64,000 nt of DNA from Escherichia coli. GTDB lineage: Bacteria; Pseudomonadota; Gammaproteobacteria; Enterobacterales; Enterobacteriaceae. Below are positions 17,450 to 60,925 of the stretch, one piece after another (positions within the stretch are counted from its first letter, which is position 1; every line of letters starts with the position of its first letter). The stretch lies in assembly GCF_044647545.1 (NCBI RefSeq), contig NZ_CP172818.1; one strand, given 5' to 3'. Below the pieces are notes generated by a model. It saw only the letters and a program-made list of their open reading frames with translations. It did not search any database and was not told the DNA's origin. Made by a program: the position numbers and the translations under genes.

Positions 17450-18352
17450 TCAGAAGCTATCATTTAAACGATCTATGAATCGGGAGAAGACAAGGTTGTT
17501 CAACGAAGCCTTGTTATAGGAAATATAAAGTTTAACCGCAGGAAGAGGTTGTTCCAGTTTTATTTCTTTTAACTTCAAAAAGTCACGATGTAAATTGTAC
17601 AGTTCGGTGGGCACAATGCCTAATAAGTCAGTAACAGAAATACTATTAATTATAGTCATCAAAGAAGAACTGCGAAATGAAACTTTACGGTTCATAAAAC
17701 GTTCATCTATGTCCATTTGAATTTCGTCAATCCCTGCTGATTTAGATATCAACAGGGTGAATTCTTCGGCGATAATTTGTTCATAGTTACTGGTATCGGT
17801 AATACGAGGATGTTTGTTGCTACATATAAGAGAATTGCGAATAGTATGTAACGGCATGCAGATGACAGAGCGGCTAATTACTGGTTGTAGTGTAATTGCC
17901 AGGTCAGTTTTGCGTTGAACCAACAGTTCTTCGGCATTTTCAGCTGAAAGCAGTATGTCATGGCATTCTATATCGATTGAAGTATCTTGTCTAAGACAGC
18001 GGATTAGCATGTTGTTATTAGTACAAGAAATAAGCTGAGGACCGTAGATAATAAAATTTTTCTTTAGCTCAGACTTATTAACAATATTGATCGTTTGTTC
18101 AATGCCTCTGAGATTTTTCTCAAGATGATGATGCAGATTTAACCCTGTCGTAGTCGGCGCGATACCTTTCCCTGAACGAATGAATAACGGGTCATTAAAT
18201 TGCGCACGTAAACGTTGTAACGACTGACTAACAGCAGAGGGCGTTATATATAATGATTCTGCCGCTTTACTAATGCTGAGATGTTGATAAATACATTCAA
18301 ATATGACCAGTAAATTGAGGTCAAATTTTTTTAGATCATAAAGATTCGCCAT
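17450..18352 (-). CDS. ybdO: LysR-family transcriptional regulator
   Basis: 300 aa from ATG at 18352 (alternative upstream ATG at 18388); N-terminal HTH; markedly AT-rich coding sequence. Confidence 0.85.
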   Translation of the reverse strand: MANLYDLKKFDLNLLVIFECIYQHLSISKAAESLYITPSAVSQSLQRLRAQFNDPLFIRSGKGIAPTTTGLNLHHHLEKNLRGIEQTINIVNKSELKKNFIIYGPQLISCTNNNMLIRCLRQDTSIDIECHDILLSAENAEELLVQRKTDLAITLQPVISRSVICMPLHTIRNSLICSNKHPRITDTSNYEQIIAEEFTLLISKSAGIDEIQMDIDERFMNRKVSFRSSSLMTIINSISVTDLLGIVPTELYNLHRDFLKLKEIKLEQPLPAVKLYISYNKASLNNLVFSRFIDRLNDSF

Positions 18353-18556
18353 AACATACTCCGTTGTATTGTCTCTTCCATAAATCATTCACTTGATCAA
18401 TATTGTTGTTGTATTTATATGTGTTATGTTTTTCTGCTTAACTTTGGATTAAGATTTTCTAAAATAGCATAGCTGTCAGGTGGGTTACGAGCAATTCATG
18501 CTTTTTTAGGATGGTTGAAAAGCAGGAATATATTTCAACCATCCATAAATTATCTT

Positions 18557-19303
18557 TTATTTATTCCCCATAATGATATTAAGCGTTTTCTGATCGGGCA
18601 ACCCCACGGCCTGTTGCAGTGTATTTTCCTTACTCATGTAATAGATAGCTGGCGTGACATTTGCCCCCAGATCGTCCATCAGTTTCTCGTTATCGCTTAA
18701 CACTTTCATTTGCTCTGTACTTACGTTTGCAGGCACGTTTAGTTTAAGCTTGCCACCAGAGGCTTCATATTCTTGCCAGGTTTTTGCGGGATCTTTGGAG
18801 GCAAGAATTGCCGCTGCTGTCGCCGGGCTTTCTGGCTTGATAACGCCAACCAACAATGTTCTTAATTGCACTTTGCCAGAATCTACCCACGGGCGAGCCT
18901 GCTGCCAGAACTGTTTACAATATGGGCAGAACGGATCGGCGAAGACGTAGACAATGACCGGCGCGTCTTTTTTACCGTCGAGGAGCCAGTGGGATTGTTC
19001 CATCCGTTGCCACATTTCGCGTCCGGCGGGTGCGTAAATTTCTTTTTCGATAAGTGTGTTACTCAGGTTTTCACCTTTCTCGTTGTACATGTAACCGGAG
19101 ATAGCGTGCTTACCATCTGGAGTCAGGTAGATGGTGACGCCCATATCCTGATACTTGCCGAGATAACCTTTCATTCCTCCGGGAGCATCGAACGTTTTGA
19201 TGATTGTAATGCCCTGTTTTTCAATCGCTTTTACTGGGGCAGGAAGTTCCTCTGCGAAGGCGATTGCAGGAAGCAGAGCCAGTAAAAGTATCTTTTTTAA
19301 CAT
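18557..19303 (-). CDS. dsbG: Periplasmic thiol:disulfide interchange protein
   Basis: 248 aa from ATG at 19303; signal peptide [17 protein letters not shown]; thioredoxin CPYC motif. Confidence 0.92.
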
Positions 19304-19589
19304 TAATTTGTCCTTTTCAGTCAGTGCAAAAGTCGAGTAAAAGGCATAACCTATCACTGTCATAGGTAAGAGCTTAGATCAGGTGATTGCCCTTTGTTTA
19401 TGAGGGTGTTGTAATCCATGTCGTTGTTGCATTTGTAAGGGCAACACCTCAGCCTGCAGGCAGGCGCTGAAGATACCAAAGGGTAGTTCAGATTACACGG
19501 TCACCTGGAAAGGGGGCCATTTTACTTTTTATCGCCGCTGGCGGTGCAAAGTTCACAAAGTTGTCTTACGAAGGTTGTAAGGTAAAACT

Positions 19590-20238: not shown

Positions 20239-20255
20239 TCGCAATCGCGTAATTA

Positions 20256-20282
20256 ATCGGGTGCTGCGGCACCCGATTTTCT
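20256..20282 (+). terminator. Hairpin plus T-tract immediately after ahpC (partial terminator/attenuator before ahpF)
   Basis: atcgggtgc ... gcacccgat stem followed by ttttctt. Confidence 0.5.
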
Positions 20283-24249: not shown

Positions 24250-24286
24250 ATAAAAAAGCCCGCCAGGTGGGCTTACCTGGCGGGCG
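24250..24286 (-). terminator. Intrinsic terminator after citT, end of the cit operon
   Basis: 11-bp stem gcccgccaggt / acctggcgggc with 6-nt loop; minus-strand transcript continues with tttttt. Confidence 0.75.
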
Positions 24287-36718: not shown

Positions 36719-36750
36719 TCAAAACCCGCTTAATCAGCGGGTTTTTTTTG
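36719..36750. terminator. Bidirectional intrinsic terminator between convergent cspE and crcB
   Basis: aaaacccgct taat cagcgggtttttttt: A-tract, GC stem, T-tract. Confidence 0.8.
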
Positions 36751-38394: not shown

Positions 38395-38426
38395 AAAAAA
38401 CCCGCTTCAAAAAGCGGGTTTTTTAT
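38395..38426. terminator. Bidirectional intrinsic terminator between convergent tatE and lipA
   Basis: aaaaaacccgc ttcaaaaa gcgggtttttt: A-tract, stem, T-tract. Confidence 0.8.
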
Positions 38427-41876: not shown

Positions 41877-41908
41877 CAACTCCCGCCAGAAGGCGGGAGT
41901 TTTTTACT
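41877..41908. terminator. Terminator-like hairpin between dacA and ybeD
   Basis: 9-bp stem actcccgcc / ggcgggagt with 4-nt loop, followed on the plus strand by tttttt; both flanking genes are on the minus strand. Confidence 0.55.
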
Positions 41909-49779: not shown

Positions 49780-50811
49780 TCAACCGTCGATAAATACGTC
49801 CGCCAGGGGTTTATGGCACAACAGAAGAGATAACCCTTCCAGCTCTGCCCACACTGACTGACCGTAATCTTGTTTGAGGGTGAGTTCCGTTCGTGTCAGG
49901 AGTTGCACGGCCTGACGTAACTGCGGCTGGCTTAAGCGATTTAACGCCTCGCCCATCATGCCCCGGCGGTTCTGCCATACCCGATGCTTATCAAACAATG
50001 CTCGCAGTGGCGTATGGGCAGACTGGCGTTTCAGGTTAACCAGTAACAACAGTTCACGTTGTAATGTGCGCAACAAAATAACCGGTTCGCTGCCTTCCAG
50101 ACGCAGTTGCTGAAGAATATGCAACGCGCGCTTACTTTTTCCCATCAACAAAGCATCAACCCAATGAAAAGGGGTGAAATGCGCGGCATCATTCACCGCC
50201 TGTTCAACGCGAGGTAATGTCAGTTTGCCGTCTGGCCAGAGTAGCGATAAACGCTCCAGTGCCTGAGCCAGCGCCAGCAGGTTACCTTCATAACAGTAGC
50301 AGAGCACCTGATTCGCCGCGTCATCCAGTTCTAAGTTGAGCTGTTTTGCGCGCGCAGCAACCCAGCGGGGAAGCTGAGCCTGCTCCGGCGTCTGACAGGT
50401 CACCTGCACGCTGCGATTCGCAAGAGCAGTAAACCAGGCGGCATTTTCTTGCGCTTTGCTTAATTTATTACCGCGGACGATCAACAGCAGGTCGTCATGC
50501 AGAAGTCCGGTGAGTGTGAGAAGTTGTTCATTGATCGCCGCATTCGGTCCGTTTTCTGGTAACAACAGCAATAGCGTTTGTCGACTGGCAAACAGACTCA
50601 TGGCCTGGCATAACGAAAAGATCGCATTCCAGTCAGTGTTGGGATCAATGGAAAAAGTGTGGTGTTCTTCGAATCCTTGTACCGCAGCTACCTGACGAAT
50701 AGCGTCCTGGCTTTCCTGCAATAACAGAGGATCGTTACCAAGTAAAAGATACGCCGCGCGCAGCCCTTCATTGAGCTGCGCGCGGAGTTGTTCCGGGTAC
50801 AACCGAATCAT
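49780..50811 (-). CDS. holA: DNA polymerase III delta subunit
   Basis: 343 aa; 1 bp after nadD start, 1-bp overlap with lptE. Confidence 0.93.
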
Positions 50812-60884: not shown

Positions 60885-60925
60885 GCCGATGCCGGATGCA
60901 GCGTTTATGCCGCATCCGGCAGCCG
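60885..60925. repeat. REP (repetitive extragenic palindrome) element between convergent djlC and hscC
   Basis: gccggatgcagcgtttatgccgcatccggc matches the GCCGGATGCGGCG... REP consensus family. Confidence 0.6.

Follow-up and report, generated by a model that had tools for sequence, protein, structure and literature searches.

Release of the RNA at an intrinsic terminator requires a U-tract, and H-NS promotes both pausing and Rho-dependent termination. REP/BIME elements are extragenic palindromes at mRNA 3' ends, which they stabilize and where they can block 3'-5' exonucleases. Dar and Sorek (2018) described Rho-dependent transcripts of E. coli that have precise steady-state 3' ends right after stable stem-loops lacking U-rich tails (PMC6061677). 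These ends arise from diffuse Rho termination sites via trimming by PNPase or RNase II, and the class shows a mild enrichment of C over G downstream of the stem-loop (PMC6061677). An A-rich tract upstream of the stem is typical of intrinsic terminators and not of Rho-dependent termini (PMC6061677).

The palindrome that follows dsbG in E. coli shares features with each of these systems. Like a canonical intrinsic terminator, it is located just after the stop codon on the coding strand, with an A-rich tract upstream, but in Escherichia a UAAAAAAG tract replaces the U-tract, the stem is AT-rich and the loop has 12 nt. Like the stem-loops of Dar and Sorek, it is a stable stem-loop soon after a stop codon, without a U-rich tail, although that class is typically without an A-rich upstream tract, which is present here (AAUAAAUAAAAGAUAAUUUAU), and the loop is unusually large. 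It resembles the REP/BIME stabilizers in its extragenic position at a putative mRNA 3' end, and the LysR-type (T-N11-A) CitR box in having dyad symmetry within the ybdO upstream region. The best explanation for the palindrome is an RNA stem-loop within the 3' UTR of the dsbG mRNA (minus strand), of which it is the DNA counterpart.

The window, meaning the whole 64,000-nucleotide (64-kb) stretch of E. coli DNA that was analyzed, contains a perfect inverted repeat at 18509-18544, identified by direct inspection of the sequence. The arms GGATGGTTGAAA (18509-18520) and TTTCAACCATCC (18533-18544) are exact complements and form a 12-bp stem with a 12-nt loop, in agreement with the first-pass annotation of this DNA, which had reported such a hairpin past the dsbG stop. 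The order on the plus strand is gcttttttag, GGATGGTTGAAA, agcaggaatata, TTTCAACCATCC, ataaattatctt, tta. The dsbG gene (248 aa; 18557-19303, minus strand), present in the ORF list and in the RefSeq annotation of an identical E. coli locus, ends with a TAA stop codon at 18559-18557, leaving a gap of 12 nt before the stem. On the dsbG transcript, the core stem-loop (18509-18544, minus strand) is predicted from the perfect repeat, the minimum free energy (MFE) fold and the covariation of its core 9 bp, and comprises a 5' arm GGAUGGUUGAAA (18544-18533), a loop UAUAUUCCUGCU (18532-18521) and a 3' arm UUUCAACCAUCC (18520-18509). It is preceded by the A/U-rich 12-nt spacer AAGAUAAUUUAU (18545-18556, minus strand), and followed directly by the UAAAAAAG tract (18501-18508, minus strand), which occupies the place of a U-tract.

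Folding of the 36-mer as dsbG-sense RNA (minus strand) gave -16.1 kcal/mol (z = -6.5 versus shuffles), a stable stem-loop downstream of the gene on its coding strand, as expected of an intrinsic terminator. The antisense RNA (plus strand) gave -15.2 kcal/mol (z = -5.6 versus shuffles). Other features expected of an intrinsic terminator are absent. The tail after the stem on the dsbG strand, UAAAAAAGC, has 1 U in its first 8 nt, where about 5 or more would be expected, and the 12-nt loop and AT-rich stem (5 of 12 pairs are G-C) stand against an expected loop of 3-8 nt and a G+C-rich stem. The absence of a U-tract on the dsbG strand bears out the view in the first-pass annotation that the hairpin is no canonical terminator there.

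Two further pairings are possible at the locus. In an optional outer helix, the last 7 nt of the spacer (18545-18551) provide the 5' strand and pair with 18493-18499 (AUGAAUU, minus strand), adding 7 bp around the hairpin together with a 9-nt A-rich bulge. The underlying repeat, AATTCAT...ATGAATT, is perfect in most E. coli alleles and contains one U·G pair in the allele of the window, and the pairing of AAUU(U/C)AU with AUGAAUU enters the predicted MFE structure of K-12-type alleles. Alternatively, 18494-18505 could pair with 18518-18529 at 11 of 12 positions, joining the 3' half of the loop region to the downstream AAAAGCAUGAAU; this pairing is broken in at least one natural allele, that of strain E1. 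Both the outer helix and the AAAAGCAUGAAU pairing are regarded as putative. The 3' half of the outer helix lies within the block GCATGAATTGCTCG (18486-18501, minus strand), in the interval from the hairpin to the -10 element of ybdO. This block shows no variation among the sampled E. coli alleles, although strong divergence sets in immediately downstream of it, and its CTCG is kept in Citrobacter too. Either promoter DNA or the 3' strand of the outer RNA helix could account for the block.

Just two perfect hairpins with a stem of 12 bp or longer and a loop of 3-20 nt occur in the window, compared with a chance expectation of 0.07 ± 0.25 per window (60 dinucleotide-preserving shuffles); the second, at 38395-38424, is a canonical bidirectional terminator. 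Using a 48-nt query centered on the hairpin, we found it in 5352 of 5426 complete E. coli genomes (~98.6%), at essentially one copy each, and it is therefore not a dispersed repeat. No other copy of either arm was found within the window with one mismatch allowed. An Rfam scan with permissive thresholds showed no family at gathering score over the hairpin; a plus-strand match to the Plastid-psbM 3'UTR family (30.2 bits versus a gathering score of 52.7, E = 0.07) was judged to be due to chance. Membership in the REP/BIME or another dispersed palindrome family was also rejected, the dsbG hairpin being single-copy, without the REP consensus and not GC-rich, unlike REP/BIME elements. Origin by chance, or from a dispersed repeat such as REP/BIME or a MITE, has nothing in its favor beyond the presence of a hairpin in AT-rich intergenic DNA; given the low chance expectation, the single copy per genome, the Rfam result and conservation of the hairpin across genera, such an origin is excluded. 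RefSeq has no annotated feature under the hairpin, and no description of it was found in the ybdO literature searched.

Other perfect hairpins in the window, of 10-11 bp, are located at 20255-20278, 24258-24285, 36721-36745, 41878-41901, 50754-50785 and 60890-60921. They are GC-rich, several are flanked by short A and T runs, and by eye they look like ordinary terminators; the one at 20255 lies just after ahpC, and the one at 60890 is REP-like (TGCCGGATGC...). The Rfam family STnc70, an enterobacterial sRNA, matches positions 19437-19530 on the plus strand (44.1 bits versus a gathering score of 40, E = 3.8e-07), in the dsbG-ahpC intergenic region upstream of ahpC.

To survey the hairpin across species, one genome was taken per species with DsbG, giving 70 loci. 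The dsbG stop was located in 67 of these, and the downstream sequence was folded. In most of the 67, a strong stem-loop starts 0-21 nt after the dsbG stop, whichever gene lies downstream, and its sequence differs by genus. An automated count of 66/68 loci with a "strong hairpin" was not used as a statistic, because it is inflated by GC-rich Kosakonia-type loci. The E. coli hairpin is best explained as the Escherichia version of one that follows the dsbG stop throughout the Enterobacteriaceae. In Salmonella enterica subsp. arizonae and diarizonae (L022, L023), a GC-rich palindrome, GCCCGATA...TATCGGGC, located ~35 nt after the dsbG stop, stands in place of the AT-rich hairpin family; it is REP-like by eye only, and a ybdO homolog is still the next gene.

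Homologous hairpins could be aligned in register for 27 sequences from Escherichia, Citrobacter and Pseudocitrobacter. The core arms are GGATGGTTG/CAACCATCC in E. coli, GGATAACTG/CAGTTATCC in Escherichia sp. E1V33, GAGTGATTG/CAATCACTC in most Citrobacter, GGGTGA(T/C)TG/CAGTCACCC in another Citrobacter group, and GGTGATTG/CAATCACC in Pseudocitrobacter. The half-site sequence differs between genera while the pairing stays, and the loop varies freely. From the alignment alone, RNAalifold recovered exactly the 9-bp core, with double compensatory changes in 7 of the 9 pairs. The covariation score of this core was 0.350, compared with 0.215 ± 0.016 for column shuffles, none of which (0/500) reached 0.350, and the score was at most 0.20 when the 3' partners were slid by 1-3 columns. 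The hairpin is an evolutionarily conserved helix that has been kept by compensatory change. A palindrome that is not conserved, which the first-pass annotation had named as an argument against its proposal, is not what we found; it is conserved in E. coli and in related genera.

The aligned cores also indicate which strand is under selection. Standard pairs account for 241 of 243 cells (99.2%) when the core is read on the dsbG-sense strand, versus 232 of 243 (95.5%) on the antisense strand. Where only one partner of a core pair has changed, the dsbG-sense strand shows G·U in 10 cells and A·C in a single cell (raw binomial p = 0.006; ~7 versus 1 when counted as independent events, p ~0.035). 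The excess of G·U on the sense strand points to selection on an RNA helix of the dsbG transcript, and a double-stranded DNA site or an antisense RNA is disfavored because neither would give this asymmetry. The conserved strand is the dsbG sense strand.

The gene order around the hairpin leads to the same owner. In E. coli, ybdO (now annotated citR) is the next gene after dsbG, on the same (minus) strand, and a ybdO homolog follows dsbG in 38 of the species loci surveyed. The homologous hairpin is kept in four Citrobacter loci without ybdO (L021, L024, L025 and L076). In two of these (L021 and L025) a 407-aa ORF, taken to be ybdN-like from its size, is found after dsbG in the place of ybdO. Genera in which dsbG is followed by unrelated genes, such as Pectobacterium, have non-homologous hairpins at this position. 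Since the hairpin is retained where ybdO has been lost, it accompanies dsbG and not ybdO, and is an element of the dsbG 3' end that does not belong to the ybdO promoter. The "RNA stability element" considered in the first-pass annotation fits these observations, namely the compensatory changes, the G·U pairs confined to the sense reading, the variable loop, and the persistence of the hairpin without ybdO.

Within E. coli, the stem is nearly invariant. Variation across the 11 sampled alleles that are intact affects 2 of 24 stem positions, both at helix ends, compared with 8 of 12 loop positions. The innermost stem pair is broken in the K-12 and O157 alleles, and the outermost pair in strains clone D i2 and R12, leaving 11 bp; the perfect 12 bp is allele-specific. 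A CsrA-type GGA motif in the loop on the plus strand was rejected, given the variability of the loop from one E. coli allele to another. In a twelfth sampled strain, E. coli Res13-Lact-PEA14-20 (L081), IS1B is inserted inside the 3' arm of the hairpin, and in E. coli 2018-01-1CC (L006), which is among the 11 intact alleles, IS1A stands in place of the ybdO promoter immediately after the hairpin. The "nmpC/dsbG" intergenic region is listed as a mutation hotspot in E. coli B lines (PMC10195153).

The dsbG-ybdO intergenic DNA surrounding this stem is unusually polymorphic, with most E. coli genomes being 80-90% identical to the window over 191 bp. Such polymorphism fits the H-NS-associated diversification described by Higashi et al. 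(PMC4720273). The window carries a minority allele of ybdO/citR and its promoter (17450-18556), with at least 99% identity over 191 bp in 81 of 5307 E. coli genomes. Compared with K-12, the intergenic region of the window is ~84% identical, and the YbdO protein 88.7% identical. The ybdO promoter of the window is similar to the sequence given for E. fergusonii in PMC9068703 (Fig. S2).

The hairpin overlaps DNA that has been studied as the regulatory region of ybdO. In K-12, transcription of ybdO starts 107 bp upstream of the ATG (Higashi et al. 2016, PMC4720273), and this transcription start site (TSS) corresponds, via alignment to K-12, to about position 18455 in the window. An extended -10 element, TGCTATTTT (18461-18469, minus strand), is assigned from this mapped TSS, and the motif is kept in Citrobacter. 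Relative to the TSS, the hairpin extends from -54 to -89, and the UAAAAAAG tract from -46 to -53. The hairpin was found 157-192 bp before the annotated ATG (18352), in accordance with its earlier placement inside the ybdO upstream region. RefSeq places the ybdO start at 18352 (300 aa), the longest ORF begins at 18388 (312 aa), and cross-species homology sets in with the shorter form. Removal of -250 to -176 (counted from the ATG) relieved H-NS repression of ybdO and so defined an H-NS-dependent element upstream of the gene (PMC4720273). The -176 endpoint of this deletion cuts through the hairpin, which straddles the edge of the H-NS-dependent element. DNA downstream of the hairpin has been shown experimentally to be bound by H-NS (PMC4720273; PMC9141747).

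A second dyad in this region is the predicted operator of CitR (YbdO), CTTAA-N7-TTAAG, published in Fig. S2 of Rodionova et al. 2022 (PMC9068703) and located at 18437-18453 (minus strand). It is the sole operator proposed in the ybdO upstream region, and a CitR ChIP-exo peak is present upstream of citR (PMC9068703). The predicted box spans +3 to +19 of the ybdO TSS, overlapping the start site, a position that fits autorepression, and the box stays conserved between Escherichia and Citrobacter amid diverging flanks. The possibility that the hairpin itself is the CitR operator was rejected, as the published predicted box is a separate dyad. The two differ in size (17 bp versus 36 bp for the hairpin), in position (+3 to +19 versus -54 to -89), and in what is conserved, namely the sequence of the CitR box and the pairing of the hairpin. 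The hairpin also departs from what is expected of a LysR-type operator: it has a 12+12+12 bp architecture, its half-sites are not conserved in sequence across genera, and in Citrobacter it is kept without ybdO, whereas an operator would be present only with its regulated promoter or regulator.

We therefore consider it very unlikely that the palindrome acts as a DNA site in the ybdO/citR promoter, either as an operator for CitR or another dimeric regulator or as part of the H-NS element. Its position relative to the mapped TSS, the H-NS-relieving deletion that cuts through it, and the CitR ChIP-exo peak upstream of citR would be consistent with such a site. These are outweighed by the compensatory half-site changes and the tolerance of G·T and not A·C, which are a signature of RNA, by the persistence of the hairpin where ybdO is lost, and by the misfit between 12-bp arms with a 12-bp spacer and a LysR-type T-N11-A box. 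For H-NS, the AT-rich spacer by the stop codon would be a more natural site than the stem. The "protein-binding palindrome" proposed in the first-pass annotation is accordingly not upheld, given that the half-sites change with pairing kept and that the published operator lies elsewhere.

Comparison of the tails of the homologous hairpins suggests how the Escherichia form arose. The homologous stem in Pseudocitrobacter is followed by the tail UUUUCU, and that of C. youngae-type loci by UUCUUUUCU, both of which are U-rich, and these hairpins look like ordinary intrinsic terminators. The unrelated hairpins downstream of dsbG in Pectobacterium, Silvania and Leclercia also look like intrinsic terminators. 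In all sampled Escherichia, the tail instead consists of U1-3 followed by A4-6, with 0-3 U in 8 nt outside E. coli. Efficient RNA release by the hairpin alone is therefore not expected, and in Escherichia it probably releases RNA polymerase inefficiently when acting by itself. From these sequence comparisons, the Escherichia hairpin is best read as a terminator hairpin after loss of its U-tail.

It is possible, but unlikely, that the hairpin itself ends transcription of dsbG, or makes RNA polymerase pause strongly on that strand, acting as a weak intrinsic terminator without a U-tract, possibly assisted by NusA/NusG or by an H-NS roadblock just downstream, with no need for Rho or trimming. The hairpin stands exactly at the site expected for a dsbG terminator, homologous stems elsewhere have U-tails, and the A-rich tract before the stem is as in intrinsic terminators. 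In a consensus promoter/terminator scan, no alternative terminator was found between dsbG and ybdO; the hairpin itself was not flagged, because the scan has a loop limit of 8 nt. The argument against termination by the hairpin alone is the requirement of a U-tract for RNA release, when the 8 nt behind the stem contain 1 U in E. coli and 0-3 in the rest of Escherichia, together with the atypical 12-nt loop and AT-rich stem.

A role on the opposite strand appears quite doubtful. The hairpin would there serve as a terminator or insulator, possibly bidirectional, against antisense or spurious transcripts running from the H-NS-silenced ybdO region into dsbG. On the plus strand, the stem extends to 16 bp with a single bulge (-16.9 kcal/mol) and has UUAUCUUUUAUUUAUU after it, and a promoter-like site is present at 18438-18465. 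However, the U-rich tail is accounted for by the dsbG coding sequence, being complementary to its final codons plus stop, AAUAAAUAA, and the number of promoter-like sites, 7 versus 6.9 in shuffles, shows no excess. No plus-strand gene reads into the hairpin, and the 10 cells with G·U on the sense strand would become A·C mismatches on the plus strand.

By analogy with the transcripts of Dar and Sorek, we consider it moderately likely that the hairpin sets and protects the 3' end of the dsbG mRNA after factor-dependent termination, and limits read-through into ybdO. Transcription of dsbG would pass the hairpin and enter the untranslated, AT-rich, H-NS-bound ybdO promoter region. Rho may end transcription there, helped by H-NS-induced pausing, and the 3'-to-5' exonucleases PNPase and RNase II may then remove the tail as far as the hairpin base. 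The outcome would be a precise, stable 3' end of the dsbG mRNA, the hairpin presumably conferring the stability, and less read-through into ybdO/citR. The first 100 nt downstream are untranslated and contain 19 C versus 11 G and 46% A; this C>G bias is modest and is gone beyond ~100 nt.

Searches of the accessible literature and supplements found no dsbG 3'-end mapping, Rho, bicyclomycin or exonuclease data, and the four supplementary files of PMC7815308 contain no dsbG or ybdO entries. Nothing relevant was found in the literature searched on a link of dsbG with a terminator or with ProQ/Hfq, or of ybdO with bicyclomycin.

A more elaborate role, to which we give little credence, is that the U-less hairpin forms a leaky, conditional boundary between OxyR-activated dsbG and H-NS-silenced ybdO/citR. 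Peroxide-driven read-through would then express or de-silence YbdO, closing a negative feedback. YbdO has been reported to repress oxyR, ahpC, katG and other genes in an avian pathogenic E. coli strain (PMC11681634). The nested pairings, that is, the outer helix (18493-18499 with 18545-18551) and the pairing of the loop with AAAAGCAUGAAU, could tune such read-through.

As a conserved 3' stem-loop, the hairpin is otherwise an ordinary element of a well-known kind, and would be of more interest only if read-through from dsbG controls ybdO. It would fill a gap in annotation by marking where the dsbG transcription unit of E. coli ends. The "upstream regulatory region" of ybdO/citR used in H-NS studies contains an RNA element of the upstream gene dsbG, and the promoter-deletion data need care, because the -176 endpoint falls within the hairpin. 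The locus would also offer a clean natural example of a terminator stem that is kept by compensatory evolution after loss of its U-tract.
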